Source of the DNA: a virus
Strand: one strand, 5' to 3'
IMG/VR virus record: IMGVR_UViG_3300029286_000030
DNA length: 64,000 nt
Part shown: positions 11,610 to 63,242 of the stretch, piece after piece
How the letters are laid out: every line of letters starts with the position of its first letter
Numbering within the stretch: the stretch's first letter is position 1
The notes under the pieces: model-generated
What the model was told of the DNA's origin: nothing
Database searches by the model: none
What the model saw: the letters and a program-made list of their open reading frames with translations, nothing else
Program-made: the position numbers and the translations under genes

Positions 11610-11846
11610 TTATTGAATTTGCTCCTGTTCGTCTCCGCCCATGAAATGATTGGGGCCTTGACTCTGTTGCATATAAACATAAAAGATAAAAACTAAAATT
11701 ATTATGAACATTGATGAAACCATTAGAACAACTGTTGATCCCATTGTATTCTGCATGTCTGGAAGTAATGCTTGCCCAATCGGTAACATTACTGCAAAAA
11801 TTATTAATCCTGTAACAAAAATTATTGTTGCTTCCATCCAACCCAT
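11610..11846 (-). CDS. Small membrane protein (78 aa, two TM helices)
   Basis: Hydrophobic ORF; promoter-like TTTATAAACC at 11878-11887 about 32 nt upstream. Confidence 0.4.
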   Translation of the reverse strand: MGWMEATIIFVTGLIIFAVMLPIGQALLPDMQNTMGSTVVLMVSSMFIIILVFIFYVYMQQSQGPNHFMGGDEQEQIQ

Positions 11847-11894
11847 ATAATCACTAAATATATTAGATATTTATTCTTTATAAACCTGCTGTTT

Positions 11895-14800
11895 TTACAC
11901 TTTTATATCAAGGAAAGTCTTTTCTTTTCCTTTGAATGGAATTGCTTCATTTTGGCTTTCCCATAACTTTTGTTCTTCTCTTTGTATTTGTTGTTGTGTT
12001 GGAATTACATCGTACCCAAAGAATGATCCGCGTTGTGCGATTGTCTTTTGGAATGCTCCAAGTTTATCGGCATCTACTGTAAAGTCTTTTTCACCAAATG
12101 CGAATTTTCTAAATAATGATGATTTAACTTGTATTAATCTTTTTGTCTTTTTTGTTTTCTGGTCTTTACCTTTTTTACCAGATGGGCCACCAACTTGTGG
12201 GGCTGTATAATTTCCACCAAATGGATTTGATAATGGTGCTGATTGTGAAAATAAAGATGGTGAAGATGATGGAGATGATGATATACGTGAACTTGAAATT
12301 ACAGATGATATTGGTTCTGAAATTGTTGATGATTTTTCTGAAACTATTGATTGTTGACTCCATATATCATCAACCATAGATTTTTGTGATTGTGTTAATT
12401 TAACAGATGATGGTATATCTAATTGTTTTATTACATCTTCTTGCATTTTATAAGAATTTAATTTTTCTTGAGGTACTTTAGATTCACTAATTTTTAATTG
12501 TGAAACTATATCCGAAACCATATCTTTTGGAGCAGATGATACACGTATTGGTATTGATATACTTTTTTGCGCAGATATAACTGATGAAATATTATCTGTT
12601 TTTGGTGTATTTTTAATAGTTGTTGGAATTACTCTTTGTATAGGATTCAAATTAAATATATTTGATGTATATCCTAATTCTCTAGCAACTATTGTTTGAG
12701 CTGTTCGTCCACCAGTTTGCCAGTTTGCTAAAAATTCATTTGGCGTTACCCATTTAGCTGCAGCTATTTCACCTGGTCTTGTTATATTAATTTCTCCAGT
12801 TGCTTTTCCAGTAAATAATATATCTTGATTTTGTATTAAATTTCTTGATTGTATTGATGCTACTTTTGTTCTTGGAGATCCTCTAAATTGTCCTCCAAGT
12901 ATATCTGGCATATTACTCTTAGTTAAAAGAGGTGCTAATCCTGTTTCTGCAAATGTTTCTCTGAATGCTGCATATTGTGGAGATTCTCCTGGTCTTACTC
13001 CTCCACCTGGCAATCCCCATGTTCCTGTTTTTGCATCTTGTACAACTAATATCTTTTTTCCCGTTGCATCTGTTATTAATGCTCTTGCAGCTTGTCTAAT
13101 TTCAGTAGTTGCTGATGGATTCAATGCTGTTCCGCCTTTAACATATGCATTAGCACTTGCTTGTGCTATTAATTCTGGAGAAAGTCCTGCTGCTCTTGCT
13201 TGTGCTTCTGCTGCTCTTGACATTTTTACAGCTTGTGCCTCTGCCGCTTGCGCTTTTTGTAAATTTTTAGCATCGCTTTTATTAAAAAATTCAAGTGTAT
13301 TTATTTCTCCTTGAGTAAATTCACTTAAAGGAGCGCCTTCTTTTAATTTATTACTTGTATCAATTCTTAATTGTTTTCTAATAGATCTACCAGCAACTGT
13401 ATCTGGTGATAATAATTTTTGTAAAAATGTTGTTGGCGTAGTTGGTGTAAGTGCTTCTAAATTTTTTCCAGCTAAGAAATAATCAACTGTTTTACCTTCT
13501 ACCGCGGTAAGATTTAATTTACCAGTTTTATCAAATATTTCTAATTTCTTTATTGTATCTTTAATTGCTTGTGCTGTTGGTGGTGCTTCTGATACAGGTT
13601 TACCTAACATTTTAGTAACAAAATCTGTTTCTAATATCTTACTAGCTACTCCAGTTTGTAATAATCTGCCAGCTATATCTGTTCTTGGTCTCATTCCAGT
13701 TTCTAATTGAGTAGCTCTTGAAGTATCTTTCTTTATAAAATAATCAAGTGTATTTAATTCTCCTTGAGTAAATTTATTTAGTGATGCTTCACTTTTTAAT
13801 TTATTACTTGTATCAATTCTCAATTGTTGTCTAACACTTCTACCTGCAATTGTATTTGGAGATAATAATTTTTGTAAAAGTGTTGTTGGTGCTGTAGATC
13901 CAAATTCTAAATTCTTTCCAGCTAAAAAATAATCAACTGTTTTACCTTCTAATGGTGTAAGACTTAATTCTCCAGTTTTTTCAAATGTTTGTAATTTCTT
14001 TATAGCATCTTTGATAGCTTGTTGTGTTGGAGGAGTTTCTACTGGAGTTTTATTTAATAATTTATTAGCCAAATCAGTTTGTAATAAATTACTTGCAATA
14101 TTTGTTTGTAATAATTTACCAAATAAATCTGTTCTTGGGCGCATTCCAGTATTTAATTCACTTATTCTTGCTTCTGTTTTACCTAAAAATTCTTCAACTG
14201 CTTTTGATTCTCCTGGTGTAAGATTTAATTCTCCAGTTCTTTCAAATAACTTTAACTTATCCATAGTATTTTGTATTAATTGATTTCTTTGTGCAACTGT
14301 TAATAATTCCCCTTTATTAAATGCCATATCTTCTGCTATTAATTTAGGCATTAATTTTGTTTCTGCTGGAGTTAATTTCACAGATGGACTTGTAGATATT
14401 TTTGTCTTTAGTGCTGCAATATCAGCAACTTCTTTTGCAGCTGCATCTATTTTAGCATTCATTGCTTGCATATTCTCAACAAACTGTTTTCCTTTTATTT
14501 TTCCAATTTCTTCCCAAGTTGTTGGTGTAATAACTACTGGTTTTAATATTGTTGGTATTGGAGTAGATGTTATTCCTATTATATCAGTTGCACGAACTAT
14601 TTTAGCTCCAAGTGTAGTTGGTTGCACAATATTTCCAATTCCTATCGCAATATCTTTAGTAATATTTTGAGGATAAAATGTTACTTTAGATTCAGCTATA
14701 TTTTGACCTAATGCTACTGCTTTATTTGCTAAATTTTCAGTTCCTATAATTAAATTTTTTCCACCAGTAACAATATTTTTTCCACCTGCTAATATTGTTG

Positions 14801-19400: not shown

Positions 19401-19422
19401 ATTAATCTATAAGATTCCTTTA

Positions 19423-19437
19423 TTTAAAAACCTTTGT
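19423..19437 (-). promoter_or_regulatory. BRE/TATA-like promoter (minus reading CAAAGGTTTTTAAAT), TATA 3' edge 24 nt from ATG (leaderless)
   Basis: Conserved motif and spacing. Confidence 0.5.
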
Positions 19438-19438
19438 G

Positions 19439-20797
19439 TTAACGGCTTGCGTCATATTTAAGTTGTTGCGCAGGTGTTAATTTAGAATACATTGTTTTTA
19501 ATGTATATGATGTATCAATTGTTCTTCCTGTTGGAACGTTATATCGCATCCATGCACTTTCTTGTTTGTCAGTAGCTGCTGTTGCTTCTTCTTGTTTAGC
19601 AAAATTTAAAATAGTATTTGATTTATCAACTGCAGCGTCAAATTCAGATCCTGCTTTTTGAATTTTTGCTGTATTTGCAACATCATATTTACTTGCTCTA
19701 TCAGCTAAAATTTTTTCAGCTCTTCTAACAGGAGCTTCATTTGCTAAATTAGTTCCACCAACTAATGATATAAATCCTTTTTTTCTTTCTGTAGCTGCTT
19801 CTAAAATTCTTGCTTGACTTTTTATTAAAGCAGCTGCTCCAGCTTTTTCTGCTTCATACTTAGCTCTATCAACTGCAACCATTTTTTCTAATTCTGCTTT
19901 AAAAGATGGATCTGTAAGTTTCTTTTCTAATATTTCTGCATAAAGTTTATTATATGCAGCATTATCTCGTTGATCTGAAAGTTCTGGTCTATTTTGTTCT
20001 ATCCAAAGTTCTACTTCAAAATCTGTTTTCCATCCTGTTTTAGGATCATAAGTATAAGTTGTTTTTCCATCTTGTATTGTTTGTCCACCGCTTCCGCTTC
20101 CTCCTCCGCTTCCTCCTCCGCTTCCTCCTCCGCTTCCTCCTCCGCCCCAACTTGAATTTTGATTAGGTCCAGAATAAATTGGTCCTGCTGGTGTAGAAGG
20201 TGTTGATGGTTTTGGTAAATTGAAAGGATTTGATGTAGATGGTATATTAAAATAATTTGTAGATGGTTTTGGTGCTGCAGGTGGTGGTGATGCTGGTGGT
20301 TTTGGTGGAGCTGGAGGTGGTGATGCTGGTGGTTTAGGTGGATTAAAAAAATTATTTACTGCTGATGCAATTTGATCAAATGGCCATCCTTGTCTATCAT
20401 AATCAAATGGATAACAATCTTTATTATTTGGAACTCCATCACTATCAAAGTCCATACGTCCATATTTTTTTCTATACTTCTCAGGAACTGCATTCCATGG
20501 TTTATTCATAAATCTTTTAGAAAGAGTGTGTATTTCGCGTGCATCTTCTTCAGCTTTCTTAGCTCTTATTTTCTTTTCTTTTAATTCGTGTATTAATTCA
20601 GTTAATTGTTTTTTATTTAATTCTGTAGATTGTGCGGGCCCAACGTGTAGTGTTTTTTGAACTTGCCTTCCCCATGTATTTGGATATGGGTCAAATGCTG
20701 TAGAAGAACCAATTATTTTTGGTGTAAAATCGTCTGCTAATTTATCAATAGACGAAAAATAATCTGTCTTACCCATCATATTATTTGGTTTATTCAT
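19439..20797 (-). CDS. Hypothetical protein (452 aa) with thrombospondin-type-3-like Ca-binding motif (DFDSDGVPNNKDCYPFDYD), Pro-rich and (GGGS)n linkers, conserved C-terminal domain shared with neighbouring paralogue
   Basis: ORF, promoter motif 23 nt upstream, paralogy to 20840..22294. Confidence 0.75.
   Translation of the reverse strand: MNKPNNMMGKTDYFSSIDKLADDFTPKIIGSSTAFDPYPNTWGRQVQKTLHVGPAQSTELNKKQLTELIHELKEKKIRAKKAEEDAREIHTLSKRFMNKPWNAVPEKYRKKYGRMDFDSDGVPNNKDCYPFDYDRQGWPFDQIASAVNNFFNPPKPPASPPPAPPKPPASPPPAAPKPSTNYFNIPSTSNPFNLPKPSTPSTPAGPIYSGPNQNSSWGGGGSGGGSGGGSGGGSGSGGQTIQDGKTTYTYDPKTGWKTDFEVELWIEQNRPELSDQRDNAAYNKLYAEILEKKLTDPSFKAELEKMVAVDRAKYEAEKAGAAALIKSQARILEAATERKKGFISLVGGTNLANEAPVRRAEKILADRASKYDVANTAKIQKAGSEFDAAVDKSNTILNFAKQEEATAATDKQESAWMRYNVPTGRTIDTSYTLKTMYSKLTPAQQLKYDASR
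19780..19976. repeat. About 197-bp block identical to 21184..21380 (inter-paralogue gene conversion/duplication)
   Basis: Near-100% nucleotide identity between the two tandem paralogues. Confidence 0.8.
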
Positions 20798-20815: not shown

Positions 20816-20835
20816 TTTATTTATAAAGCTTTCGT
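20816..20835 (-). promoter_or_regulatory. BRE/TATA-like promoter (minus reading CGAAAGCTTTATAAATAAAG), 23 nt from ATG
   Basis: Conserved motif and spacing. Confidence 0.5.
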
Positions 20836-22294: not shown

Positions 22295-22316
22295 AATAAG
22301 TAATATAATGCTGTTA

Positions 22317-22330
22317 TTTATAAACCTTTC
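22317..22330 (-). promoter_or_regulatory. BRE/TATA-like promoter (minus reading GAAAGGTTTATAAAT)
   Basis: Conserved motif 24 nt upstream of 22294. Confidence 0.5.
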
Positions 22331-29869: not shown

Positions 29870-31384
29870 TCACTCTAATATCATAGTTTCAATTTGTTTA
29901 ATAATTTCAATTGGTTCTTTTTCTATTAAAACAATTAGGTCCAATAGCTTTTCGGACCATCCAGCAATACAAACAACATTCTTTTCTCCTTCTGGGAAAA
30001 CAGTTGTTCCATATCCTGCAAGATCTACCAAATATAATTTAGTATTTGGATTAATATCTTTCAAATATTGGTGCCATAATTTTTGGAAGTCGTTGTTTGG
30101 ATTAATATCTTTCAAATATTGGTGCCATAATTTTTGGAAGTCGTTGTTTGGATTTGTATACATATTATATGTTTCAGAATTCCATAATTGGCAGTCAGTG
30201 AAGATTATTAATCTATCAAGATTTAATTTTTTTGCAATCATATATTCAATAATTTTAAATCCATTTGTTGAGCATCCGACATCTATGTCAGCGACTTGTG
30301 TTGCATTTTGAATAATACTTCTTTTAGATAGTTGTGCAATTGCAAAATCGTCCCCGAATGCTCCGCATATTGATTTATCGCATATCTTATTTGAAAGAGA
30401 CATTAAAACATCTCCAACTTCTTTATAAGACATTTTACTTTTATCTGATAATGCAGTTTGCATAGACCCAGAATGATCTGTTACTAACATAGTTGTTCCA
30501 ACTAAATGTGGAATATTAGTAGCACTTAATTCAACAGCATCTTCTAAAGCATCTAATACTGTAGATGCATTTGGATTATCATTTTCTTTAATAACCTTAT
30601 ATGCTGAATAAAATCTAAATGGATACATCTTGCTTTTTCTAATAATAGCTTCATTAGAAAGTTTTGGTAAATATAATTCAGTATCTACTCCAGTTTTTAA
30701 GAAATTATTTAAGTTTCTAATTGTTGCAAATATAGGCATCTTAGGAGCTATGTGTTCCCATGTTTCTTTTGTAGACCCATTAGTAGATATATATGTTTCC
30801 CAAGTTTCTGGAATAGCCATAGTTCTTGAATTAATTCTATCAAATAACATATCTTCTTCACTATCAAGTGGAGTTGGGTGCGCAAGTCTAAGAGCATCTC
30901 TTAATTTTACTTCACCATCTTTATCATATTTTGCTAATTGATATTCATCAAATCTATGGAACGCATCTGCCAAAGATAATTTGAGTTGTTTTGGAACTGA
31001 ATTATCAAAGTTCTTTAAATGATAAGCCAACGCTTCTGTTATTTCATCTGCTCTTCTTATAATATAATTAGCATACTTTCTAACATATGGTTTTGCTTCT
31101 GTGCAATTAGCTGCTTCAACTAAAATAGCAATTGGAACAGATCTTAAATATAAATCATTTCTTAAAAATACCGCAAGTTTTAATACATATTCTGGATCTT
31201 TCTTTAAAACAGTTTTAATAAGTTCAATAGTTTCGTTTGTTGTATCTCCATAGAACTTATCTTCTTTCATAAGCTGTGCTGCGCACATTAAGTATAATTT
31301 AACTTTATCTGATGGAACATATGCTAACGCTCCTTCTTTATTAGTTGTTTTTGAAACAATTTTTACAGGTTTATTAAATCTCAT
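29870..31384 (-). CDS. Ro60-like protein: TROVE domain + C-terminal vWA (MIDAS DHSGSM)
   Basis: vWA motifs LVTDHSGSM, LIIFTDCQ; N-terminal half shows Ro60-like blocks (LYLMCAAQLM..FYGD cf. Ro60 FLCFGSEGGTYY; LRLAHPTP cf. LRLSHLKP). Confidence 0.7.
   Translation of the reverse strand: MRFNKPVKIVSKTTNKEGALAYVPSDKVKLYLMCAAQLMKEDKFYGDTTNETIELIKTVLKKDPEYVLKLAVFLRNDLYLRSVPIAILVEAANCTEAKPYVRKYANYIIRRADEITEALAYHLKNFDNSVPKQLKLSLADAFHRFDEYQLAKYDKDGEVKLRDALRLAHPTPLDSEEDMLFDRINSRTMAIPETWETYISTNGSTKETWEHIAPKMPIFATIRNLNNFLKTGVDTELYLPKLSNEAIIRKSKMYPFRFYSAYKVIKENDNPNASTVLDALEDAVELSATNIPHLVGTTMLVTDHSGSMQTALSDKSKMSYKEVGDVLMSLSNKICDKSICGAFGDDFAIAQLSKRSIIQNATQVADIDVGCSTNGFKIIEYMIAKKLNLDRLIIFTDCQLWNSETYNMYTNPNNDFQKLWHQYLKDINPNNDFQKLWHQYLKDINPNTKLYLVDLAGYGTTVFPEGEKNVVCIAGWSEKLLDLIVLIEKEPIEIIKQIETMILE
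30050..30151. repeat. Perfect 51-bp tandem duplication (2 copies) inside Ro60-like gene, in frame (duplicates NPNNDFQKLWHQYLKDI)
   Basis: 30050-30100 identical to 30101-30151. Confidence 0.9.
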
Positions 31385-33143: not shown

Positions 33144-33953
33144 TTAAAACCTTCCGCCTGCTCCTCCTCCACTAAATCCTCCCGAATTTCCAAATCCACC
33201 AAATCCCCCAGATGAGCCTCCTCCAAACGAACTTCCACCAGATGAACTTCGACCAGATGAACTTCCACCAGATGAACTTCCACCAGATGATCTGCCAGGC
33301 GGTCTTCCAAATGATCCACCAATAATTGAACCACCAATTGATCCTCCACTAGAAGAATCATCGCTTATTATTATAATAAAAACAACAGCAACAATAAAAA
33401 TACAAAATATCATTAAAAAGAATACACCCGGATCCGATAAATCAATAGTACTAATTTTATCTGGAAGAAGTTCATTTGATTGCACATTATTTAAATCAGC
33501 AATTGCTAAAGTAAGTCCTGTATAAAAATCTCCTTTCTTAAAATTTGGATCAAAATCTTTTAATTGAATATCGCGTATCTCAATATCAGTAATCATTGTT
33601 TCCGCGCCTTTTGCAGTTGCAATAAAATATTCTCTATCTTTTACTGCTATAAGAATTACTAATCCATCAAATCTTCCTTTATTTCCTACTCCAAATTTAT
33701 TACCTAATTCAAGAGCATAATCAGAAATTGGTTTACCTTCGGTTGAATCAATTAACCATACGCCTATTTCAATATTAGAATCAGTTGAAACTTGTTTAAG
33801 TTGAAAATTAAGTTGTGATATTTGTTCAGTTGTTAATGTACCAGAATAATCATTCAAATAATTCGTAGGAATTGGAATGGAATCAATGCTTAACGAATAA
33901 GCACTGACCATCATTAATAATATTCCAATTATTATACATATTTTATTCAACAT
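33144..33953 (-). CDS. TPM-domain (TLP18.3/Psb32/MOLO-1-like) protein with TM and Gly/Ser-rich C-terminal tail
   Basis: LNDYSGTLTTEQISQL...GVWLIDS...NGLVILIAVKDREYFIATAKG; 4-nt overlap with lemA. Confidence 0.8.
   Translation of the reverse strand: MLNKICIIIGILLMMVSAYSLSIDSIPIPTNYLNDYSGTLTTEQISQLNFQLKQVSTDSNIEIGVWLIDSTEGKPISDYALELGNKFGVGNKGRFDGLVILIAVKDREYFIATAKGAETMITDIEIRDIQLKDFDPNFKKGDFYTGLTLAIADLNNVQSNELLPDKISTIDLSDPGVFFLMIFCIFIVAVVFIIIISDDSSSGGSIGGSIIGGSFGRPPGRSSGGSSSGGSSSGRSSSGGSSFGGGSSGGFGGFGNSGGFSGGGAGGRF
33180..33300. repeat. 15-bp tandem coding repeat (Gly/Ser-rich tail of TPM protein)
   Basis: ccagatgaacttcca-like units repeated about 5 times. Confidence 0.8.
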
Positions 33954-34574: not shown

Positions 34575-36491
34575 TCATGAAAAAAATGATGCCAATGTTG
34601 ATTGCGAATCCTTTATAAAGTATGCAAGCTCGGCCCATACATTTTCAAGATTAATATCTGTTATCTTCATTTTATTCTTTTCAAACTCTTCAGCCGTACA
34701 ATATTTTTTATCTTTACCAACTCCAACTCCCCGAAGATTTGGAATTAAAAAATGTATTCCAGGCCCATACTTAGTTGAAATCTGTGCTTGAAGTTGTGAA
34801 GGCATTTTATAATCGGCAGCACTCTTTACACTAAATCTAATTTCTGCCAAAGATAAATCTTTTTTTAATAAATCATATACTGTATCTCTTAAATATGCTT
34901 CAGAGAATTTTACTCTACGCTCTTCTGTTATTTTAGGAACAAGCACTTCCCAAAACATTTTTCTACTCAAAGTGCTTAGGGATTTCTTTCTAACACCAAG
35001 ATTTTTAACTACAATTTTTCCTTCGTTGGTTCTATAAATATAATTTTTCTTAATAAACTTTTTTGGTTTATTAATATAATCATATTCATCCATCTCTGAA
35101 TCAGTTTCTTTATCTCCAACATTTCCTTTGAAAAACCACATGTCAGATATTTCAGCATCTATTGACATATCAAATTTATCATATGGAAATGGAACTGCAT
35201 CTTTTATTTCTTTTATTATATCCTGTTTAAGCTGTAACATCTTTTCTTTATTATCATATATATCAATTAGATATACAGAATCGGTATCAGTATATATTAC
35301 ATTATAGCCAGCATCTGCAAATCTCTTTCTAGCTAACTTTACCCATTGTCTTCCTAATCTAGTTACATCTGCAGCAGAAGTTCTATTATAAAGATGTGAG
35401 AATGATGGATTACCAAGTAACCCATATGCGGCATTCAATTGTATTTTTAATGAATATTCGCGTGGATCCTTTTCTTTCTTATATTGTAATCTCCATTCAT
35501 ACCATTTCTTAAATAACTGTTCAACTTTACCTTGAACTTTATTATTATAAACACCTTCAACATTAAACTTACCATTGCCATTCCAACCTTCTACAGATGG
35601 AGAAAATATATTACACTGATGCATTATACTTGGATATAGTGATGCAAAATCAAGACAGTATATTTTTCCAGAAAAATATTCACCTGCTGGAAAACTTACA
35701 TATCCACCACCATAAGACTGTTTATCTTTTACATTAGAATATTCTTCTTTTAAATCTAAAGATTTACAAATACTTTTATATGTGAATACAGCTGTTGAAC
35801 ATGATAAATATTTCTTTGAAGACACATCTTCTGGAATAACATATTCTTTAAAACTTGAAAAATAATCCTCAATCCATACATATAATTTTTTTGTAACTTC
35901 TAAATCTCTTAATGTGTAATCCTTTATCTTATTTGTTTCATCAATTGTCCATTGGTCGGTCTCTTTTTTTAATATATTATAATCAAAGTCTTCTATTTTA
36001 GCTGTGTCATCACTAACAATTCCAATTGTTCTTGATATAAAATCAAGAGAATGCCGTAATAGTAAATCATTAAGCATTCCTTTCTTTACTTTCATTGCAC
36101 TAGCACGTTTTTTTATAATCATCATAAGATCAATATTAATTTTTCCTTTAATACGAAATGTTGCATTTTGATCTTTTTTTACAATATCATCATATCCATT
36201 ATAATAAAGAACTTGATTATCATATCCTTCAAAAAATGTTTTCTGATGGAATCCACCAAGATTATTAAATCCAACTAAAAAATAATGTCTATTTATCATA
36301 TCTCTAATTTCTTTTTCATGATATAATAAGTAATACTTATCATCATCAAATGAATAACATCCAAACACTCTTAATTTGTGTGTTTGAGTTGGAGATCTAT
36401 ATTCTGCAGCAGTTTCAAGATCGTATATTAATACACCTTTAAATCTGTCTTCAACTTTAGGTTTTATAACTTCATCAGCCATTGAATGCAC
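34575..36491 (-). CDS. polB: Family B DNA polymerase, compact (638 aa) with 3'-5' exonuclease motifs
   Basis: Exo I YDLET; motif A DFASLYPSIM; motif B KIQLNAAYG; motif C YTDTDSVYL. Confidence 0.9.
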   Translation of the reverse strand: MHSMADEVIKPKVEDRFKGVLIYDLETAAEYRSPTQTHKLRVFGCYSFDDDKYYLLYHEKEIRDMINRHYFLVGFNNLGGFHQKTFFEGYDNQVLYYNGYDDIVKKDQNATFRIKGKINIDLMMIIKKRASAMKVKKGMLNDLLLRHSLDFISRTIGIVSDDTAKIEDFDYNILKKETDQWTIDETNKIKDYTLRDLEVTKKLYVWIEDYFSSFKEYVIPEDVSSKKYLSCSTAVFTYKSICKSLDLKEEYSNVKDKQSYGGGYVSFPAGEYFSGKIYCLDFASLYPSIMHQCNIFSPSVEGWNGNGKFNVEGVYNNKVQGKVEQLFKKWYEWRLQYKKEKDPREYSLKIQLNAAYGLLGNPSFSHLYNRTSAADVTRLGRQWVKLARKRFADAGYNVIYTDTDSVYLIDIYDNKEKMLQLKQDIIKEIKDAVPFPYDKFDMSIDAEISDMWFFKGNVGDKETDSEMDEYDYINKPKKFIKKNYIYRTNEGKIVVKNLGVRKKSLSTLSRKMFWEVLVPKITEERRVKFSEAYLRDTVYDLLKKDLSLAEIRFSVKSAADYKMPSQLQAQISTKYGPGIHFLIPNLRGVGVGKDKKYCTAEEFEKNKMKITDINLENVWAELAYFIKDSQSTLASFFS

Positions 36492-39306
36492 CTAATGTAC
36501 TATTAAATACATTCACTTTCGCAAAGTCCCCAAATAGTAATATGAGTTTATAATAATCTTTTATTACAAAATATTCTACTCCGTCAATTGAAGCAAACTC
36601 AATTCTATAATCTTGTTCAAGTTTATGCTTATCAAGTCTATCAATAATTGATGAAACTCCACGATTTTCTGGTTTATAATTACTATTAGCTATATAGTCG
36701 TGTAATTCTCCAACATATATTGTACCCTTCTTTCCTTTTTCTCTTACAAAATTATATATTGAAGATACAACTGCTTTCATTTCAAGATTCTCATTATCGA
36801 AACTTGCTTTAAGCCCAGCACTTAAAAACTTATTAACATCTGGATTATCAACAACTTTTTCAAAACTTCTTAAATTAATTGATTTGCATACTTCTAAATA
36901 ATGTTTTGCTTTATCAACAATTCTAACTGCATCATAATTATTATTAATTATATCATTCATATAATCAAGACATGCTAATCGCAATGCTGTTCCATTTAAG
37001 TGTTTATAACTATTCAATGAGCCACTCATAAATTTTCGAACACTTTCTACACTTGCTTTTTCAGCAAATGCTGCTATTGTATCAGCATATGTTTTATCAA
37101 ATGGAGTGTCCAAAAAAGCGCGTATTTGTGGGTCTCTTAACATTTTTGTAAATACAGGTGCCGCTTGTTTTCGTATATACTCTGTTTTGGCAAATAATAC
37201 ATCAAGTTCATCTTCTGTATATTTTTGTTTTCCACTAATACGATTAGTATCTGGATCAAAAACAATTAATCCTATTCTACTTCCAATTGCGGCAAAATTA
37301 CTTGTAATTGATTTTAAAGTTGAATCAAACTGTCGTACAATTTCACTCATTGATTCTGCTTTATCTGAAAATTCTTTTATTTCTTTTGGATTTCCTAAAA
37401 ATGTTATTGAAGATAATCCTTCACATGTTATACTTTTTTTACCAACATCAATATTTATTATACCCATTTCTAAGAAACTTAATAGTTTTCCATATAAAGA
37501 TTTAGGTTGTTCTTCTTCAAGTTCATCAATATATACTGGCATTACATATCTATGTAATGTTCCACGATTAATTTCATCACCAGTTGCAAACCCCATTAAA
37601 TTTTGTATTGTTGTTCTAGCTGCATTATGCCCCATTCTTGTTGATATAGTTGTTTTTCCAGCTTTAGTGCCTGTATAAATAACTTTATGATTATTATAAA
37701 ACTGATATGTAAAAAAATCAGCTGTAGAAATATCTGGTATTAAAAAATCACTTTCCATTGCTAATTTAACTCTATTATCAATATTTAACCCAAGTGAAAC
37801 ATGATCCTCGATAAGTTTCTTTGTGTCTTCATTACTCAAAGACTTTACATCATCTTCATCAATACCAGAACCTAAACATCTTAAGTATGAATTAATATTT
37901 TTCATATCTTCAGTTACAATCCAATCAAAAAGAGTTGAATCTTGTGACATTTTTTCAGCTTTCTTCTTATCCATACCAAAATTAACTGCCATCTTTATTA
38001 ATATTTTTGGTTCTGGTGGGTGTTCTAAAAACAAATCATATAATACGTGATTAGTTTTTAATGGAGTTACAAACTTTAATTGGTCTCCTTCTCTTACTTC
38101 AGATTCATCTAAACAAAGGAGATATCTAAAAGGATTACCAACAAGAATTCTTGTTTCAAATAAAGTATATACTGGTGTATTAGTTATAACATCGTGTTCT
38201 CCAAGAAGTGTATTATTTCCTTGGTAAACATTTTTCATAATAACAATTTTAGCTTTTTCTGCTTTCTTTGTAAATTTAACTTTCTTGTCATCATATCTAA
38301 AATTATTATATTGACATTTGAAACATGGATCTTTTGTTCCTGTTTTTTTACAATAATTAAAAATTTCACCACAATTAAATTTCTTTAAAGTTCCTGCTTT
38401 AAATGAATCGTCCCATCCTTCAAATTCTTTTTGTTCCATTCCTTGAAATTTGCAAAAAGATTCTCTTAATTCTTTGTTTCCAGTATAATTAGTATAAACT
38501 GCTAAATTTTTAATTAAAATACTATGCCTATCTCCTTCTGGAAACTTTTCAGTTAATGCTACAGTATCAAAAAATGGGCATTTTCTTTTTGCTTCAACTT
38601 CTGTACTAATAGTTTCAGAATCATTCATTTTAGAAGTAATTGGGTTGTCCTTATATAAATTATTAATAAGATCTATAAATTCAAAATTATCATTATATCC
38701 TCTATAATCTAACCATCTTGATAATTTTTTAGCACTAAGATTAAATGTTCCTATTACTCTAGAAACTCTTGATAAATTAAATGTTGCAGAATCAACTCCA
38801 AATTTATCAACTAAATGTTGCTTTAATATTTTAAGTTTTTGTTTCCACTCTTCTCTATTTTCTTTTGTTATAACTACTGCTTTAAAAGGAACTAATAAAT
38901 GATATCCTCTTCCACTAAATGCCATAGATGCGGCAATATTATTATTATTAAATCTTAATAATAAATCAGTTGCTTGTTTTTCTATTTCTTCAATAGATTG
39001 TTTTTCGTTGTGCGCATCAAAATCACACATTATACATCCAAGCCGTTTTACATCTTCATCTCCACCCTTAAGATGTTCTCTTTCATTAAGGCCTGCAGAA
39101 ATATTCATTCCCTTATCAATATTATCTTCAATAGTACTCAAAAATTCGTCTTTAGAATGAACAAAGAAATTTCGAGCTGGAGAATTATGTTTATTATTAT
39201 ATAATCTTAATTCTGTCTCTGACTCGTGGTGAAGGAGATCGTAATATTTCTCCGCATCTTCGCGACAATAATTATTGTTCGTTTCCACTAAAATCGTCCC
39301 CATCAT
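36475..39306 (-). CDS. Primase-helicase fusion: N-terminal archaeo-eukaryotic primase (prim-pol) domain + C-terminal P-loop (SF3/D5-like) helicase
   Basis: AEP motifs CDFDAHN and SGRGYHLLVPF; Walker A YTGTKAGKTTIS; 17-nt overlap with polB. Confidence 0.8.
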   Translation of the reverse strand: MMGTILVETNNNYCREDAEKYYDLLHHESETELRLYNNKHNSPARNFFVHSKDEFLSTIEDNIDKGMNISAGLNEREHLKGGDEDVKRLGCIMCDFDAHNEKQSIEEIEKQATDLLLRFNNNNIAASMAFSGRGYHLLVPFKAVVITKENREEWKQKLKILKQHLVDKFGVDSATFNLSRVSRVIGTFNLSAKKLSRWLDYRGYNDNFEFIDLINNLYKDNPITSKMNDSETISTEVEAKRKCPFFDTVALTEKFPEGDRHSILIKNLAVYTNYTGNKELRESFCKFQGMEQKEFEGWDDSFKAGTLKKFNCGEIFNYCKKTGTKDPCFKCQYNNFRYDDKKVKFTKKAEKAKIVIMKNVYQGNNTLLGEHDVITNTPVYTLFETRILVGNPFRYLLCLDESEVREGDQLKFVTPLKTNHVLYDLFLEHPPEPKILIKMAVNFGMDKKKAEKMSQDSTLFDWIVTEDMKNINSYLRCLGSGIDEDDVKSLSNEDTKKLIEDHVSLGLNIDNRVKLAMESDFLIPDISTADFFTYQFYNNHKVIYTGTKAGKTTISTRMGHNAARTTIQNLMGFATGDEINRGTLHRYVMPVYIDELEEEQPKSLYGKLLSFLEMGIINIDVGKKSITCEGLSSITFLGNPKEIKEFSDKAESMSEIVRQFDSTLKSITSNFAAIGSRIGLIVFDPDTNRISGKQKYTEDELDVLFAKTEYIRKQAAPVFTKMLRDPQIRAFLDTPFDKTYADTIAAFAEKASVESVRKFMSGSLNSYKHLNGTALRLACLDYMNDIINNNYDAVRIVDKAKHYLEVCKSINLRSFEKVVDNPDVNKFLSAGLKASFDNENLEMKAVVSSIYNFVREKGKKGTIYVGELHDYIANSNYKPENRGVSSIIDRLDKHKLEQDYRIEFASIDGVEYFVIKDYYKLILLFGDFAKVNVFNSTLGAFNG

Positions 39307-46436: not shown

Positions 46437-46520
46437 TGCAGGGGAACGGATTCGGACCGTTGAAAGCACTAAGCTACAGGATCTTAAGTCCTGCCCCTTT
46501 GACCGCTCGGGAACCCCTGC
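46437..46520 (-). tRNA. tRNA-Leu (anticodon UAA), class II with long variable arm
   Basis: Minus-strand fold: acceptor GCAGGGG/CCCCUGC, 3-bp D-stem with GG in loop, anticodon stem CAGGA/UCCUG with loop CUUAAGA (U33, anticodon UAA, G37), 15-nt variable arm, T-stem AACGG/CCGUU, discriminator A; T-loop reads UCCGAAU (C at position 55, noncanonical); no encoded CCA. Confidence 0.55.
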
Positions 46521-57794: not shown

Positions 57795-57817
57795 AATATA
57801 TTTAAGGAATTGCTTAC

Positions 57818-58021
57818 TTATAAACCTTTTGGATTAGTTGGCCCAGGCAACAAAATAATTTTTTTCTTAAAAACCCAATGTGGAAGTTTATTCCTTTTTT
57901 GCCGTTGTTCTTCTTTACTCTTAAGTTCATTTACTGTTTGAAATTCGGCACCGACAGGTTTAATTATTGTTGGAGTTCTTTGTTTTCGTTGTGGCCCAGT
58001 CATAAAAAGAATTATCCCCAA
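57818..58021 (-). CDS. Small basic protein (67 aa)
   Basis: ORF. Confidence 0.35.
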   Translation of the reverse strand: MGIILFMTGPQRKQRTPTIIKPVGAEFQTVNELKSKEEQRQKRNKLPHWVFKKKIILLPGPTNPKGL

Positions 58022-58820: not shown

Positions 58821-59453
58821 TCACAATAATTTATCTAAATTTTCTTCAAGTAATTTCCATTGGGTTAATGATTTTTTTCTAGGATATTCCATTTCATAAT
58901 TTTGCAGGCCACGTTTATTAGGTATATTTTTTTCATAATTACTATAATATTCTTCTCTATTTGGTGGAAATAAATGAATTGATAACGCAGGAATTTTTTT
59001 ATTAAAATATGGCGGTTCAACTCTATATCCTTGTTCTTTATGCCATTCAGTGCCTTTAATTATTTTATCAATATTTTGTGGATTTTTAAATAATATATAT
59101 GGTGATGCGATATCTCCGGGATCAATACAATGTCCAGGATATTCATATCCTGCACAACTTGCAATAGTGGCATATCCTTTTTTATTCATTTTTTCAATAA
59201 CAGGTAAAATTCTTTCATCTGCAGTATTAAAATTTTCACTTGGTATGGGAGAAATATTTTTTCTATGTTTTGGAGTAAATATATCATCTAAAATATTATT
59301 ATGTACATATGGTGTAAATACTTCTTTATGATTTGGTTCCAATTGATTCTCTATAACGCCATATGGTGAAGTGTTTGACAATTTATTTATTCTGGGATGA
59401 TTTTGTTGCCCCATTACATCATCGGCCATTTGATCTAGATCCATTTCATCCAT
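58821..59453 (-). CDS. Hypothetical protein (210 aa) with N-terminal MDEMDLDQMADDVMGQ leader
   Basis: ORF; promoter TTTATAAA 25 nt upstream. Confidence 0.5.
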   Translation of the reverse strand: MDEMDLDQMADDVMGQQNHPRINKLSNTSPYGVIENQLEPNHKEVFTPYVHNNILDDIFTPKHRKNISPIPSENFNTADERILPVIEKMNKKGYATIASCAGYEYPGHCIDPGDIASPYILFKNPQNIDKIIKGTEWHKEQGYRVEPPYFNKKIPALSIHLFPPNREEYYSNYEKNIPNKRGLQNYEMEYPRKKSLTQWKLLEENLDKLL

Positions 59454-59475
59454 ATAATTAAATAGATATTTCTTA

Positions 59476-59492
59476 TTTATAAACCTTTCTAA
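59476..59492 (-). promoter_or_regulatory. BRE/TATA promoter (minus reading AGAAAGGTTTATAAATA), first transcription unit leaving the strand-switch region
   Basis: Motif and spacing. Confidence 0.5.
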
Positions 59493-59522
59493 ATATTATA
59501 CCCTAATAATAATTCAATGTTT

Positions 59523-59544
59523 GGGGCGAAGCCCGGGCCCGGCC
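59523..59544. repeat. GC-rich palindromic element ggggcgaagcccgggcccggcc (GGGC-GAA-GCCC hairpin + 10-bp perfect palindrome ccgggcccgg)
   Basis: Strong GC island in AT-rich intergenic DNA. Confidence 0.7.
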
Positions 59545-59582
59545 ATTCGGAAATTCCTAATAGTTCAATTTATGAGAATATT

Positions 59583-59654
59583 AGTGGGACCTAACTTCCC
59601 AATTCCACATTTTACTGGGACCATTCCGCGATTTGGGCCATTATAATAATTCAA
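59583..59654. repeat. Copy 1 of ~72-bp imperfect direct repeat (about 80% identity with 59728..59800)
   Basis: agtgggacctaacttcccaattccacattttactgggaccattccgcgatttgggccattataataattcaat vs copy 2. Confidence 0.75.
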
Positions 59655-59727
59655 TTCTGCGTTATGTATACATTAACCTGTTTTAACCCACCTAACCTTC
59701 AGGGGTGTAAGGTATGCATCCGAGTTT

Positions 59728-59800
59728 AGTGGCACCTAACTCCGAAATTCCGTATTCTACTAGGGCCATTTGGCGATTTGAAGTATTATAATCTTTCAAA
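59728..59800. repeat. Copy 2 of ~72-bp direct repeat
   Basis: Alignment to 59583..59654. Confidence 0.75.
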
Positions 59801-59834
59801 TGAAGTAAATGAAGCGAATGAAGTGAATGAAGTA
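59799..59834. repeat. Iteron-like tandem 9-mer x4 (aatgaagta aatgaagcg aatgaagtg aatgaagta)
   Basis: Four head-to-tail 9-bp units with conserved AATGAAG core. Confidence 0.8.
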
Positions 59835-60046
59835 AACCTGCATCAATCCCACTGCCTGGATTATAATGTGATCTGAATTTATATAAATCTAGCGTGGATC
59901 GACTGGATATGAGGGTACTAGCTGTTAGCTACTAGGCCTAACTACTGAAAAATATATAAAATTGTTATATAAAATTATAATTTTAAAATATTCCCGCCTA
60001 TCCCGACAAAAAGAGCTGTTTTAAAAATTGGAATGAAAAAATATTT

Positions 60047-60064
60047 TCTATCTATTTGGATAGG
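60047..60064. repeat. 18-bp box tctatctatttggatagg (CTATC-N6-GATAG), left arm of inverted repeat pair
   Basis: Reverse complement of 60221..60237 (17/18). Confidence 0.75.
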
Positions 60065-60113
60065 TTTTAATTAAAATTACTAGCTGGGGGTTGACTAAAA
60101 AATGGGTATAGGG

Positions 60114-60170
60114 TAATAATAATAATAATAATAGTATTGAATATAATGAATAATAATAACTAAAAAGTAT
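60114..60170. repeat. (AAT)n microsatellite / AT-only tract, candidate DNA-unwinding element
   Basis: gggtaataataataataataatag... between the inverted boxes. Confidence 0.6.
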
Positions 60171-60220
60171 CAAAATAATGAATTTATAAAAGACAAAAAT
60201 GACTAAAAAATTGAATAATT

Positions 60221-60237
60221 CCTATCCAAATAGATAG
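60221..60237. repeat. Right arm of the inverted repeat pair, cctatccaaatagatag
   Basis: Reverse complement of 60047..60064. Confidence 0.75.
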
Positions 60238-60261
60238 TTTTTATTTTTTCTAAATTTTTTT

Positions 60262-60294
60262 AAAACCCGCACTTTTTGGTTATCTGGCGGGTTT
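60262..60294 (+). other. Hairpin aaacccgc-N17-gcgggttt followed by T-run; terminator-like or regulatory stem-loop at edge of plus-strand gene block
   Basis: 8-bp GC-containing inverted repeat then tttatttta. Confidence 0.35.
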
Positions 60295-60365
60295 ATTTTA
60301 TAATTATAATAATTAAAATACATACATTTATAAAGGGTATGATGTATAATATATATGGTGATATA

Positions 60366-60614
60366 ATGTCAAATAAGATAATTGCGATAACAGATGTTCA
60401 AAAAAGTAAAATGGATTTATTAAAAAACGCCTATATTTATAAAACAAAAAAACATATAAAGTGGGTACCGTTCATAGATGTTGTATTAGGAATAGTTGAG
60501 GTCGAAATTAAAAAAATGCCAGATTTTGTAGATCCAGTAATTAAAGAAGACACATTAGAATCAGAGGGTGTTATTGAAGTACCAGAAGAACAGGACCCGA
60601 ATTACAGTGATTGA
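60366..60614 (+). CDS. Small protein (about 83 aa); ORF-track start at 60276 uses TTG and is probably an artefact
   Basis: ATG at 60366 (MSNKIIAITDVQK); TATA-like TTTATAAA at 60327-60334. Confidence 0.4.
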   Translation: MSNKIIAITDVQKSKMDLLKNAYIYKTKKHIKWVPFIDVVLGIVEVEIKKMPDFVDPVIKEDTLESEGVIEVPEEQDPNYSD

Positions 60615-60829
60615 TTATGGATGAACAAACCACAGGAATTACAACTCTACATATTCGGAAGCAACAGGATATGAAATTAAATGCATTAATGCAAACATAT
60701 ATACAAAAGACATTGGTAAAGAAGAAAAAAGTAGATTTTTTTGATACGGTATTAGAGATGATTGAAGAAAAAATAACTTCTATGCCAACTGCAGAAAGGA
60801 ATGAAAACGGTAAAATTGTTTATAAGTGA
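60611..60829 (+). CDS. Small protein (72 aa)
   Basis: ORF with 4-nt overlap with upstream gene. Confidence 0.4.
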   Translation: MIMDEQTTGITTLHIRKQQDMKLNALMQTYIQKTLVKKKKVDFFDTVLEMIEEKITSMPTAERNENGKIVYK

Positions 60830-60835
60830 TCAAAA

Positions 60836-61519
60836 ATGAATGATTTATCAAAGGATGAAATAACACAACGTATAAATGAAGGCACAATTACTAATGCCGA
60901 GTTATTAATGATTCCTGGAAGATATATTGGAAGAATACCTGGTGAAACAGATTGGCACGATGTTGAATGGGTAACTAAACAATATAAGGACGATTTATTA
61001 AAACTAAAAACATTAAAAGAAGAAAAAAAGAATATATGCTCAGATGAATTTAAAAAATCACATTATATTCAGATTAAAACAATACATACACGATTAAGAT
61101 TGAAGCGAAACTATAGAGATAAAAATCGCAGAGTAAAAGATTTAAAATTTAAAACAATAACTGGATTAAGATCAATTATGCGAAATGCTATATTATATGG
61201 AACTGATAACCCAAGATTACTCCGATATTTGGGGTGTACTCCAGAACAGGCAAAAACCTATTTGGAAAAACAATTTAAAGAAGGTATGGTTTGGGAAAAT
61301 ACTGCAATTGATCATATAATTCCATTAATATCATATAATCCTTTTGATCCTATTCAAATGGAAAAAGCATTTAATTTTAGAAACTTACAACCTTTATTTA
61401 AAAGAGACAATTCCGTAAAAGGAACTAAATTCTCTCCGGAATCCAAAGCCGCCTACGATAATTCTTTTGTATATAATGATGGGGAGTTAAAATACATCGG
61501 CCCAAACATAGGTTTTTAA
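60836..61519 (+). CDS. HNH endonuclease paralogue (plus strand)
   Basis: NTAIDHIIPLISYNPFDP...NFRNLQPLFKRDNSVKGTKF. Confidence 0.75.
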   Translation: MNDLSKDEITQRINEGTITNAELLMIPGRYIGRIPGETDWHDVEWVTKQYKDDLLKLKTLKEEKKNICSDEFKKSHYIQIKTIHTRLRLKRNYRDKNRRVKDLKFKTITGLRSIMRNAILYGTDNPRLLRYLGCTPEQAKTYLEKQFKEGMVWENTAIDHIIPLISYNPFDPIQMEKAFNFRNLQPLFKRDNSVKGTKFSPESKAAYDNSFVYNDGELKYIGPNIGF

Positions 61520-61542
61520 GGTTGGTGGAGTATTGATTATAT

Positions 61543-61869
61543 ATGGGTAAGGATATATTAACAACATTAATGAAAGAAAATAATACTCTTTATAAAGAAG
61601 GATACAAGAAACTAAATAAAAAAAATAATAAGACCAAAAAAAGAAAAACATTAAGTGCATCGGCTAAAATAATTATATGGGAAAATAATCCTCATATATG
61701 CCATATTTGTAGAAAAAAAATTTTAAAATTATCTGAAACAGAATTTGATCATGTAAAAGCATTTTCAAAAGGTGGAACAAAATTAAAATTATCACACAAA
61801 TTATGTAATAGAGTTAAAAGTGATAAATCATTAAAATCAATAAGACATGTATTAGGAATAAAAAAATGA
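61543..61869 (+). CDS. Minimal HNH endonuclease (108 aa)
   Basis: CHICRKKI...EFDHVKAFSKGGTKLKLSHKLCNRVKSDK. Confidence 0.7.
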   Translation: MGKDILTTLMKENNTLYKEGYKKLNKKNNKTKKRKTLSASAKIIIWENNPHICHICRKKILKLSETEFDHVKAFSKGGTKLKLSHKLCNRVKSDKSLKSIRHVLGIKK

Positions 61870-61875
61870 TTAACT

Positions 61876-62673
61876 ATGGTTGAAGATTTAATGTCGCGAT
61901 CAATGAGAGGTTTTCAAAGATCACAAAAACATCTTGAAAAACAAGCATTTAAATCTACTTGGGCGAGACCATCCCCTAATCCAATATTTAGACCTAAAAT
62001 ATATAACCCAATAATTAAACAAAATAGTTTTATACGGCAACCTATTATAATAAATAAAACAACACCTATAATATTAAATACACCGCGAACATGTGTGATA
62101 TGTGGAAATGAATTAAGAAGTAGAAAAAAATATTGTTCTAAATGTAGACCTTGGGGAACAAAAATATCATTTGGTAATATTTTCCGTGGTGGAGATAATT
62201 ATGATTCAGGATGGGGAATAATTTTTTTATTAGCAGGTATTTTTCTCTTATTTGCAGCGGTTTTTTATGCGGCATACTTATTTATAAATTGGTTTACTGC
62301 TTGGCTTGCCGCAAATATTATAAGCATTTGTGTAATTCTTATAATTGGAGGAGTATCAACTTTCTTAATCTCTAAAAAAATACTTAAAAATTCATTTCCA
62401 GAATTTAATATGGAAAAAGATCTTTTACAAAATTTTGTAACTTTAGTAGGATTAATAATTTCAAGTTCTATTATTGGATCAATATTAATTATAATATTAG
62501 CGTATATATTATATTTATTAATTTCATCTATAATTGCTGATATTATTTTTGTTATTATTATTGGTATTATTATATGGTTCATATTTAAAAAATATAATAT
62601 AATAAACAAGATAAACCCTCCAAAAATACCAGTAAAAACATATAAATACACATTACCATTAATTGAAGAATAA
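61876..62673 (+). CDS. Zn-ribbon + polytopic membrane protein (265 aa)
   Basis: CVICGN...CSKC then four or more TM helices. Confidence 0.5.
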   Translation: MVEDLMSRSMRGFQRSQKHLEKQAFKSTWARPSPNPIFRPKIYNPIIKQNSFIRQPIIINKTTPIILNTPRTCVICGNELRSRKKYCSKCRPWGTKISFGNIFRGGDNYDSGWGIIFLLAGIFLLFAAVFYAAYLFINWFTAWLAANIISICVILIIGGVSTFLISKKILKNSFPEFNMEKDLLQNFVTLVGLIISSSIIGSILIIILAYILYLLISSIIADIIFVIIIGIIIWFIFKKYNIINKINPPKIPVKTYKYTLPLIEE

Positions 62674-62711
62674 ACCACAACTTTATAAACACTTCGCAGC
62701 ACTGATTAGAT

Positions 62712-63242
62712 ATGGATAAATTAGTAATTATTCTATTGATACTAATATCTGGGGCCCTAGGCTTCTTGTATTTTGGTGTTAATACGCAAATGGCAGATTT
62801 AAAACAAACAGTAATTTCAACACAACCAATTATAAATACCCAGTCTTGCGACCTAAGTATCATTGAAGCGAAACTGAACGGATTGGATGATGAAGAAAAC
62901 AATACACAATCCCAGGTATTTGTATTGGCCTCATATATGAGTAAATATCCTGTTGATAATTTTGAACTTTGGGATGCACATTTTAAATCTATTGATAATA
63001 GTTTAGTAACTCTTTGGGGATATACAGATTTAAAAAATAAAGGGGCTATGGCAGGTGCATATAATTCTGAAGGATATATGGTAATTGGTAGTACTGAAGG
63101 TATTAGTGAACTTAAAACATGTCAAGTATTTTTGCACGAACTTGGGCATAAAGTATGTTACCAAAATTTAAAAAACTACACAGAGTCGTGCGCGGAAGAA
63201 TATAAAGTTAAAAATTTATTTAGATGTGAGGGATTGAATTGA
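62712..63242 (+). CDS. Membrane-anchored small protein with HExxH motif (FLHELGHKV), putative minimal metallopeptidase
   Basis: N-terminal TM; HELGH; same architecture as 41413..41844. Confidence 0.45.
   Translation: MDKLVIILLILISGALGFLYFGVNTQMADLKQTVISTQPIINTQSCDLSIIEAKLNGLDDEENNTQSQVFVLASYMSKYPVDNFELWDAHFKSIDNSLVTLWGYTDLKNKGAMAGAYNSEGYMVIGSTEGISELKTCQVFLHELGHKVCYQNLKNYTESCAEEYKVKNLFRCEGLN

Follow-up and report, generated by a model that had tools for sequence, protein, structure and literature searches.

The DNA analysed here is a 64,000-nt stretch from a virus record in IMG/VR (IMGVR_UViG_3300029286_000030; the whole stretch is referred to as the window), and its gene-free gap at 59454-60341 is the best candidate for a replication origin in the 73 kb of this element that are available. 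The core of the gap is a dyad of about 340 bp, in which two arms of about 100 nt flank an AT-rich, almost C-free centre, and which lies between two divergent predicted promoters, PL and PR. Tentatively, and as judged from sequence, a replication origin is the most likely role of this region, its chief competitor being symmetric transcriptional control. An earlier note on the same DNA had proposed a candidate origin with iterons and boxes resembling origin recognition boxes (ORBs) at a strand-switch boundary. The proposal is kept here on the grounds of the inverted repeat with its AT-rich core, the archaeal host and the conservation in four lineages; the iterons, the ORBs and the strand-switch boundary were not upheld.

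The gap measures 888 bp between open reading frames (ORFs) and reaches 60365 once the right-hand gene's start codon is corrected, in agreement with the earlier description of the region as gene-free. The ORF and promoter surveys were extended to about 73 kb with overlapping contigs: the same proteins are encoded on contigs of other samples, which match the window at 100% identity and lengthen the sequence to 73,242 bp. Metagenomes in which the element occurs include the ENA assemblies ERZ27250635, ERZ27250570 and ERZ27250480, the run SRR8536341 and the JGI datasets 3300027970, 3300028571 and 3300028581. Over these 73 kb, the gap is the only ORF-free stretch of more than 250 bp. The dyad and the promoters on both sides of it are the following.

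59453-59491, minus strand: predicted promoter PL, with the B recognition element (BRE) and TATA box AAAGGTTTATAAATAA at 59473-59488 (BRE/TATA 59473-59491), which would drive the leftward main gene block.
59953-60076, no strand: left arm of the dyad, with box L CTATCTATTTGGATAG at 60048-60063 and the outer block ATTATAATTTTAAAATATTCCCGCC.
60077-60208, no strand: AT-rich centre, nearly C-free on the plus strand, with (AAT)n at 60114-60159; candidate DNA-unwinding element (DUE).
60209-60318, no strand: right arm of the dyad, with box R CTATCCAAATAGATAG at 60222-60237 and the outer block GGCGGGTTTATTTTATAATTATAAT.
60319-60365, plus strand: predicted promoter PR, with a TATA box at 60327-60334 and the proximal element GTATAATATATATGGTGAT.

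Relatives were found via the 1060-aa protein encoded to the right of the plus-strand gene cassette and via the first protein of that cassette. Three diverged lineages carry the complete region, L118 in the orientation of the window (4425-5409) and L028 (9907-10745) and L026/L027 (8256-8993 of L026) in reverse, and two further lineages, L119/L121 and L120, carry the right arm only. The flanking proteins of the relatives are 58-83% identical to those of the window. The four-way alignment of the window, L118, L028 and L026 keeps PL, PR, a GC-rich block, a block at 59858-59935 and the dyad with its AT-rich centre, and on this alignment we identify the region as a conserved cis-element.

No inverted repeat in the window is stronger than the dyad, whose imperfect arms face each other at about 59974-60076 and 60209-60310. 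Folded as single-stranded DNA, the dyad gave a z value of -4.5, and the corresponding values for L118, L028 and L026 were -5.0, -4.6 and -3.5; in each case 0 of 100 shuffled sequences folded as well. The blocks shared by the arms are an outer GGCGGG-(A/T)2-TATTTTA-N-AATTATAAT, tracts of T or A and, in three of the four lineages, the box CTATC-N6-GATAG. The two boxes, at a constant spacing of 173-175 bp, are the core of the inverted repeat; taken alone, the motif does not exceed chance (two occurrences for an expectation of 1.5, one mismatch allowed). Two such boxes around an (AAT)n tract had been described before as ORB-like. Both the boxes and the tract were found, at the positions given above; the likeness to ORBs did not hold, the ORB core motifs being absent and the box itself missing in L026. 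The arms of L026 are of largely different sequence, and their dyad is still significant.

The left and right arms differ in ways that are repeated from lineage to lineage, for example in TTTT versus AAAA after the box, so that each arm appears to be constrained and not simply homogenised with the other. Between the window and L028, the segments 60174-60252 and 60293-60332 are 96-98% identical, against about 80% for the adjacent coding DNA, a comparison which places the right inner part under purifying selection. The microsatellite of the centre is (AAT)6 in the window, (AAT)7 in L118, (GTA/TAG)n in L028 and another sequence in L026. Across the four lineages the centre nevertheless keeps 10-13% GC, 2-7 C residues within 132-144 nt of the plus strand, and several short conserved words. 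With this GC content of 0.10-0.13, it is among the four to five least stable segments of 60-150 bp in the 73 kb (top 0.1-0.5%).

The transcriptional context of the dyad can be read from a motif that precedes the first genes of many transcription units. The sequence RAAAGG-TTTATAAATA (RAAAGG-TTTATAA) was found before more than 10 genes at a distance of exactly 23 nt from TATA to ATG, followed by an AT-rich proximal element (TATAATATAT) and with no Shine-Dalgarno sequence between motif and ATG. Internal genes carry, instead, ribosome-binding sites of the GGTG/GGAG type. Examples of the motif on the minus strand are located at 10464-10479, 19420-19435, 20817-20832, 22314-22329, 57814-57829 and 59473-59488, and one on the plus strand at 62682-62688. 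This geometry is that of archaeal BRE/TATA promoters with predicted leaderless mRNAs. A scan for sigma-70 promoters gave the number expected by chance and was abandoned once the archaeal motif emerged.

The relative L026 (contig ERZ27247916 k141_243311), which is otherwise syntenic with the element, matches the archaeal signal recognition particle (SRP) RNA family RF01857 at 11873-12119 on its plus strand with 90.8 bits (gathering score 96.5) and an E value of 2e-19, the match being interrupted by the contig end. This RNA may be encoded by the element, or the contig may enter host DNA there; no equivalent was found in the window. The S-adenosylhomocysteine (AdoHcy) hydrolase of the element is 72-87% identical to genes on contigs of metagenome-assembled genomes labelled archaeon, Nanoarchaeota or Woesearchaeota, and some bacteria of the candidate phyla radiation are likewise among its matches. 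Because of the promoter grammar, the SRP RNA match and the affinity of the AdoHcy hydrolase, the element is assigned to archaea, and it is probably associated with DPANN hosts.

A position weight matrix (PWM) built from eleven leaderless promoters of the element detected only two good sites in the gap, PL and PR, at its outermost edges. PL scores 22.1, equal to the best promoters of the element, shows the same spacing of TATA, 23 nt and ATG as the genes mentioned above, and is conserved in L118, L028 and L026; its predicted transcription start site (TSS), 59453, is the A of the ATG, as in a leaderless mRNA. PR scores 11.7, with an equivalent site of 10.8-11.7 in the same three relatives, and its predicted TSS at about 60357 leaves a 9-nt leader GGTGATATA (GGTGAT) before the conserved ATG at 60366. 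The 19-mer that forms its proximal element is invariant across every relative, and since the upstream 'YNIYGD' reading frame of L028 is out of frame with the gene, this conservation lies at the DNA level. From their predicted TSSs, both PL and PR show the BRE, the TATA box centred at about -26/-27, the AT-rich proximal element and the purine start of archaeal promoters. The interior sites score lower, are weak and inconsistent among the lineages, and include no strong or positionally conserved promoter. Since the only good PWM sites lie at the edges, the roughly 830 bp between the predicted promoter cores are not accounted for by simple promoter function.

No intrinsic terminator was detected by a scan of the region. 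A local hairpin, CCCGC/GCGGG at 60264-60291 with a T run to 60298, resembles one and was rejected as a terminator after this negative scan, its pairing being lost in L118 (CCCAT) and L028 (ACAGC).

We propose to read the gap as a composite cis-control region in an archaeal element that is virus-like or plasmid-like. PL would fire outward into the long minus-strand block and PR into the six-gene cassette, and the functional core would be the dyad between them, whose arms flank a strand-asymmetric, almost C-free centre of 130-145 bp. An initiator, for which the candidates are the 943-aa primase-helicase-like protein of the element together with PolB, or else a host factor, would bind both arms symmetrically; the centre would then melt, and helicase and primase would be loaded. 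The repeat-rich left half, with its 74-nt repeats, TTGAA-N2-ATTATWA and CCTAAC motifs and 9-mers, may serve as an auxiliary, fast-evolving protein-binding zone. An origin is ranked first because the anatomy fits archaeal origins in general and because the promoter grammar leaves it unexplained. Archaeal origins contain an AT-rich DUE flanked by repeats that vary in number, orientation and sequence (PMC5333045), and in Pyrococcus the ORBs are arranged as an inverted repeat around AT-rich regions (PMC1904270). The same arrangement, an AT-rich candidate DUE between inverted flanking repeats (dyad z from -3.5 to -5.0), was found here. Like oriC of Pyrococcus abyssi and oriC1 of Sulfolobus, the region is non-coding, places an AT-rich putative unwinding region between inverted repeats, contains further short repeats (PMC5333045, PMC1904270) and lies in an archaeal transcription context. 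Unlike these origins, it lacks the ORB/mini-ORB core (TTCC...GAA, e.g. TTCCAGTGGAACT; PMC1904270), its arms are about 100 nt long instead of boxes of 13-36 bp, no orc1/cdc6 gene adjoins it, and one lineage (L026) is without the palindromic box.

Several observations weigh against an origin at this site. The ORB core TTCCNNNGGAA has no match in the window, the consensus being that of PMC1904270, which may not be that of DPANN archaea; with one mismatch allowed, TTCCANNGGAAA has six matches in the window, as expected by chance, and none in the region. Among about 55 ORFs of the 73 kb, including the neighbours of the gap, searches of Pfam, PHROGs and NCBIfam recognised no orc1/cdc6 or rep gene. 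PolB is encoded at 34575-36491 and the 943-aa protein, which has a weak primase/polymerase match in PHROGs, at 36475-39306; these genes are 20-25 kb from the region, in agreement with the distance of about 20 kb noted before. Cumulative GC skew, proposed earlier as a check, does reach a minimum at about 60 kb, but only a local one, the curve having fallen lower still by 73 kb; this local minimum is explained by the plus-strand cassette and one atypical gene. Genes of either orientation have a positive GC skew at third codon positions when read on their coding strand. To the right of the region this skew is 0.15 for the minus-strand genes, four in number, against 0.26-0.38 to the left (p about 0.01), which is a weak hint in favour of an origin, drawn from too few genes to weigh much. 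Past the 3-kb cassette the genes point toward the region, contrary to co-orientation with bidirectional forks. The centre of the dyad is not the single least stable segment of the 73 kb, and another origin candidate may lie outside the 73 kb seen of an element that exceeds 74 kb.

The strand switch itself is a small divergent cassette and not a replichore boundary, since the plus-strand block consists of six genes only (60366-63242, about 3 kb) and the minus-strand genes resume at 63293 and continue for at least 10 kb. The earlier statement that all genes to the right lie on the plus strand was thus incorrect.

In fuselloviruses, the putative origin is an ORF-less, repeat-rich non-coding region between divergent early promoters. 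Like such ORF-less putative origins of archaeal plasmids and viruses, which are assigned by anatomy only, the present region is the largest non-coding one and combines divergent promoters, direct and inverted repeats and an AT-rich tract. Unlike them, it shows no sequence similarity to the phage and plasmid records searched, its host would be of DPANN type, and the replication genes of the element encode PolB and a primase-helicase-like protein. A more detailed version of the origin reading can be put forward as a doubtful possibility. The dyad would be a non-ORB origin of a new family of extrachromosomal elements or viruses of more than 74 kb in DPANN-type (Nano-/Woesearchaeota-like) archaea; its co-evolving arms of about 100 nt would serve as the recognition site of the primase-helicase-like protein that the element itself encodes, its C-free, microsatellite-bearing core would unwind, and the invariant GCGAAGC mini-hairpin block might act as a priming or loading signal.

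The left half of the gap, between PL and the left arm, contains the following features.

59504-59517, 59641-59654 and 59786-59799, minus strand, and 59778-59791, plus strand: cluster of TTGAA-N2-ATTATWA, with a fifth copy at 60304-60317 (one mismatch).
59524-59542, no strand: GC block, composed of the mini-hairpin GGGC-GAA-GCCC at 59524-59534 and the overlapping palindrome CCGGGCCCGG at 59533-59542.
59581-59654 and 59726-59799, plus strand: two 74-nt direct repeats, 77% identical and 145 nt apart.
59798-59836, plus strand: array of the 9-mer AATGAAGYR, 4.3 copies.
59858-59935, no strand: conserved block TGGAT..AGCGTGGA..ACTNG..AGGG..AGCTGTT, adjoining the left arm, with many invariant columns in the four-way alignment.

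The GC palindrome and its hairpin, both pointed out earlier, were found again, and within them the 14-mer GCGAAGCCCGGGCC (59526-59539) is identical in all four lineages at a distance from the PL TATA box that varies between 26 and 45 nt. The left half in general is a hot spot of lineage-specific repeats and changes fast between lineages. The direct repeats, first reported as about 72 bp long and about 145 bp apart, are both present in L118, reduced to one partial copy in L028 and absent from L026. A coding interpretation of them, as paralogous ORFs starting with TTG, was discarded, the differences between the copies showing no concentration at third codon positions. Four of the six perfect matches of TTGAA-N2-ATTATWA in the window fall within 59504-59799, and L118 and L028 have copies of it as well; the hexamer CCTAAC occurs four times in the left half, against 0.04 expected. 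In place of the repeats of the window, L118 contains at 4530-4640 a duplicated 36-nt unit (GCAGTCAGTGCACTAATTGCACCAAGTGCACCAATT), and L028 contains at 10480-10540, on the main coding strand, a run of G tracts of the G-quadruplex type (GGGTGGGGATTGGTAGGGGTAGTGGGGTTGGTGGGGG).

The tandem 9-mers had been called iterons. The array exists, and 0 of 100 shuffled sequences reach the observed count; the copy number is four in the window, two in L118 and zero in both L028 and L026, and no rep gene lies nearby. Because of this variation, and because tandem repeats occur everywhere in the genome, the 9-mers behave, in this comparison, as slippage products and not as conserved initiator sites. The region resembles iteron origins of the lambda, P1 and R6K type in placing short direct repeats in tandem close to an AT-rich tract. 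It differs from them in that the 9-mers have no spacer, vary in copy number among relatives and have no adjacent rep gene, and on these features it is not classed with iteron-type origins.

Under symmetric transcriptional control, the dyad would be a long upstream regulatory region serving both PR and a weak leftward counterpart that mirrors PR at the left arm's outer end. The boxes would be operators for a dimeric protein, for example one of the 82- and 70-aa paralogues of the cassette, in an early/late or autoregulatory switch. We consider this role unlikely, even as the best-placed competitor of an origin. Each box is a palindrome of 5+5 bp with half-sites 11 bp apart from centre to centre, as is typical of dimeric regulators, and the fixed spacing of the boxes would suit an operator pair. 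The operator of the phage 434 repressor, ACAA-N6-TTGT, is likewise palindromic and is bound by a dimeric repressor; the present boxes share with it 5-bp half-sites 6 bp apart, two copies and a small gene pair beside a promoter. Unlike operators of this type, they lie far from the predicted promoter cores, no repressor fold was recognised, and they are dispensable in L026. Their distance, about 120 nt upstream of the predicted PR TSS and about 600 nt from PL, is unusual for archaeal repressors or activators, and L026 retains both the dyad and PR without them. In all relatives the small paralogous gene pair comes first after PR and adjoins the dyad, which fits an autoregulatory pair; against this, the small proteins have no match to a DNA-binding family, and the structure model is poor. 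The dyad also reaches into the TATA box of PR, and its mirror image contains a TATA-like sequence. In L118, L028 and L026 a leftward TATA box of weak to good quality is found on the centre side of the left arm (scores 6.7, 3.9 and 14.3), with the box between it and the predicted TSS. These internal promoter-like sites are, however, weak, inconsistent across lineages and degraded in the window. Transcriptional control also leaves the conserved C-free, low-stability centre of 130 bp unexplained.

An improbable alternative is that the region encodes one or several small non-coding RNAs that act on expression of the host or the element; a leftward transcript over 59858-59935 or over the 74-nt repeats would be an example. 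Such RNAs would agree with the GC-richer patches within an AT-rich genome, with TATA-like sequences 25-40 nt upstream of a segment of about 150 nt in all four lineages, and with the conservation of this segment between L026 and L028, where it has an 11-bp stem (CCCTAACAGCT/AGCTGTTAGGG) and a T6 run at its end. The stem is, however, not kept in the window or in L118, RNAalifold of the conserved block gave 0 compensatory pairs and no conserved long-range structure, and no candidate promoter scores well under the element's own PWM. The left half folds no better than shuffled sequences on either strand (z 0.06 and 0.90). Rfam 15 gave no match over the window at the gathering score or at E<=0.1, and the best sub-threshold match in 59400-60400 was SurA (E 0.02, 18 bits against a cut-off of 100). 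The earlier suggestion that the region could encode a small RNA thus found no support in Rfam, folding or covariation.

A role in packaging or as a terminus (pac/cos or a concatemer junction) in a linear virion genome, with the repeats as terminase-binding sites and the dyad as a processing site that the cassette's HNH nucleases might cut, is of similarly low probability. Short repeats arrayed next to a unique GC block are reminiscent of the regions adjacent to pac/cos of the T7 and P1 types, and the adjacent cassette encodes two nucleases of the HNH type. Five contigs, which come from independent samples, end in or beside the AT-rich centre (L013 at 60015, L014 at 59947, and L119, L120 and L121). 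These ends are, however, spread over about 250 bp without a single coordinate, and low coverage or microsatellite heterogeneity in a tract of 10% GC is a simpler explanation; L011, L012, L015 and L118 read straight through, and no terminase or capsid gene was recognised anywhere. A hairpin telomere or a junction of inverted terminal repeats was also rejected, the sequence on both flanks of the dyad being unique.

A non-functional remnant, namely a decayed insertion resembling a miniature inverted-repeat transposable element (MITE) together with slippage repeats tolerated in a promoter-distal spacer, would suit the many tandem repeats of the genome, the fast change of the left half and the MITE-end-like inverted arms, and is nevertheless very improbable, the dyad being at the same place in four lineages with flanking proteins only 58-83% identical, better conserved in parts than coding DNA, consistent across lineages in its left-right differences, and without a second copy in 73 kb.

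Putative origins or control regions recognised by inverted repeats around an AT-rich core are familiar as a class; the present case extends a known pattern and introduces no new principle. From the comparisons made, it adds a new member, unrelated in sequence, from a group of archaeal mobile elements about which little is known. The region and 14 kb around it gave no match by blastn or megablast against 50,697 phage records, and a scan of IMG/VR and JGI metagenomes with the conserved DNA patterns gave only chance matches, in GC-rich genomes and an unrelated phage ORF. Protein-based scans of IMG/VR did not find true relatives, the flanking 210-aa gene is an orphan among 5.8 billion proteins, and the majority of the element's proteins are orphans. 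To our knowledge, almost nothing is known about replication and regulation of DPANN mobile elements, and we know of no host that is easily cultivated. A sharply bounded conserved cis-element between two precisely predicted promoters gives concrete targets for testing, and the genome-wide promoter motif makes the transcription units of the whole element predictable.

The divergent cassette starts with two small genes.

60366-60614, plus strand: first cassette gene, encoding an 82-aa protein.
60617-60829, plus strand: paralogue of the first gene, encoding a 70-aa protein.

In the relatives the first small genes always adjoin the dyad, and the other content of the cassette varies. The 82-aa protein has no match in Pfam, PDB or NCBIfam, and its AlphaFold model is of low confidence (predicted local distance difference test score, pLDDT, 60); a ribbon-helix-helix fold was considered for it and set aside as speculative. 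The genes that follow encode a 227-aa HNH-type nuclease (60836-61519, plus strand) with a C-terminal DHIIP...N...N motif and a weak PHROG match to endonuclease VII, and a 108-aa HNH-type nuclease (61543-61869, plus strand) with a weak match to Pfam HNH. A 265-aa zinc-ribbon multi-pass membrane protein and a 176-aa secreted or membrane protein with a HELGH zincin motif are also encoded in the cassette.

Over the rest of the element (203-58824 of the window and 63293-73242 of the extension) no capsid, portal or terminase gene was recognised with Pfam or PHROGs; the element may be virus-like or plasmid-like, and is not necessarily packaged. It carries many genes of cellular type, encoding glycosyltransferase 4, undecaprenyl-PP synthase, an ERCC4 nuclease, SPFH and LemA/TPM proteins, purine nucleoside phosphorylase, a phosphoribosyltransferase, a PfkB kinase, an epimerase, RtcB, a Ro-like RNA-binding protein, AdoHcy hydrolase, NrdD and MazG. 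Giant ORFs of 1027, 2362, 2501 and 1060 aa are present. An apparent second gap on the minus strand (11149-11894), with four promoter motifs, encodes two small hydrophobic proteins of about 80-95 aa, each of whose genes has its own BRE/TATA promoter and a short leader.

The end of one contig at 71,181 bp was rejected as a genome terminus, a second contig continuing to 74.3 kb. This break coincides with an intein polymorphism in nrdD, and an intein-related gene difference may be its cause. The nrdD gene (69313-72312 of the extension) varies among strains and relatives: it encodes 999 aa on L015 (16602-19601), is called on L011 (1-141) as a 622-aa product with a faint intein-domain match, and encodes 673 aa in L025 and L026, the forms of L015 and L011 both being said to be longer than this. 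In L028 (216-4067) a 1283-aa form has clear intein and HNH domains.

Tandem repeats are pervasive, with 61 rows of Tandem Repeats Finder (TRF) output in the window, of which the 9-mer array is one, and in this richness the element is reminiscent of some archaeal extrachromosomal elements. Repeats with units of 21, 12, 51 and 15 nt, some of them perfect and intragenic, are located at 19175-19223, 20093-20145, 30045-30154 and 33204-33290, and the 2362-aa ORF contains long arrays of 81-nt (27-aa) modules (3490-10001). A gene of the IS605 OrfB/TnpB type (Pfam OrfB_IS605, Cas12f1-like_TNB) lies on the minus strand of the relative L029 (1314-2453), near the homologue of the 1060-aa protein. A single tRNA gene, tRNA-Leu(TAA), was found at 46437-46520 on the minus strand, the main coding strand.

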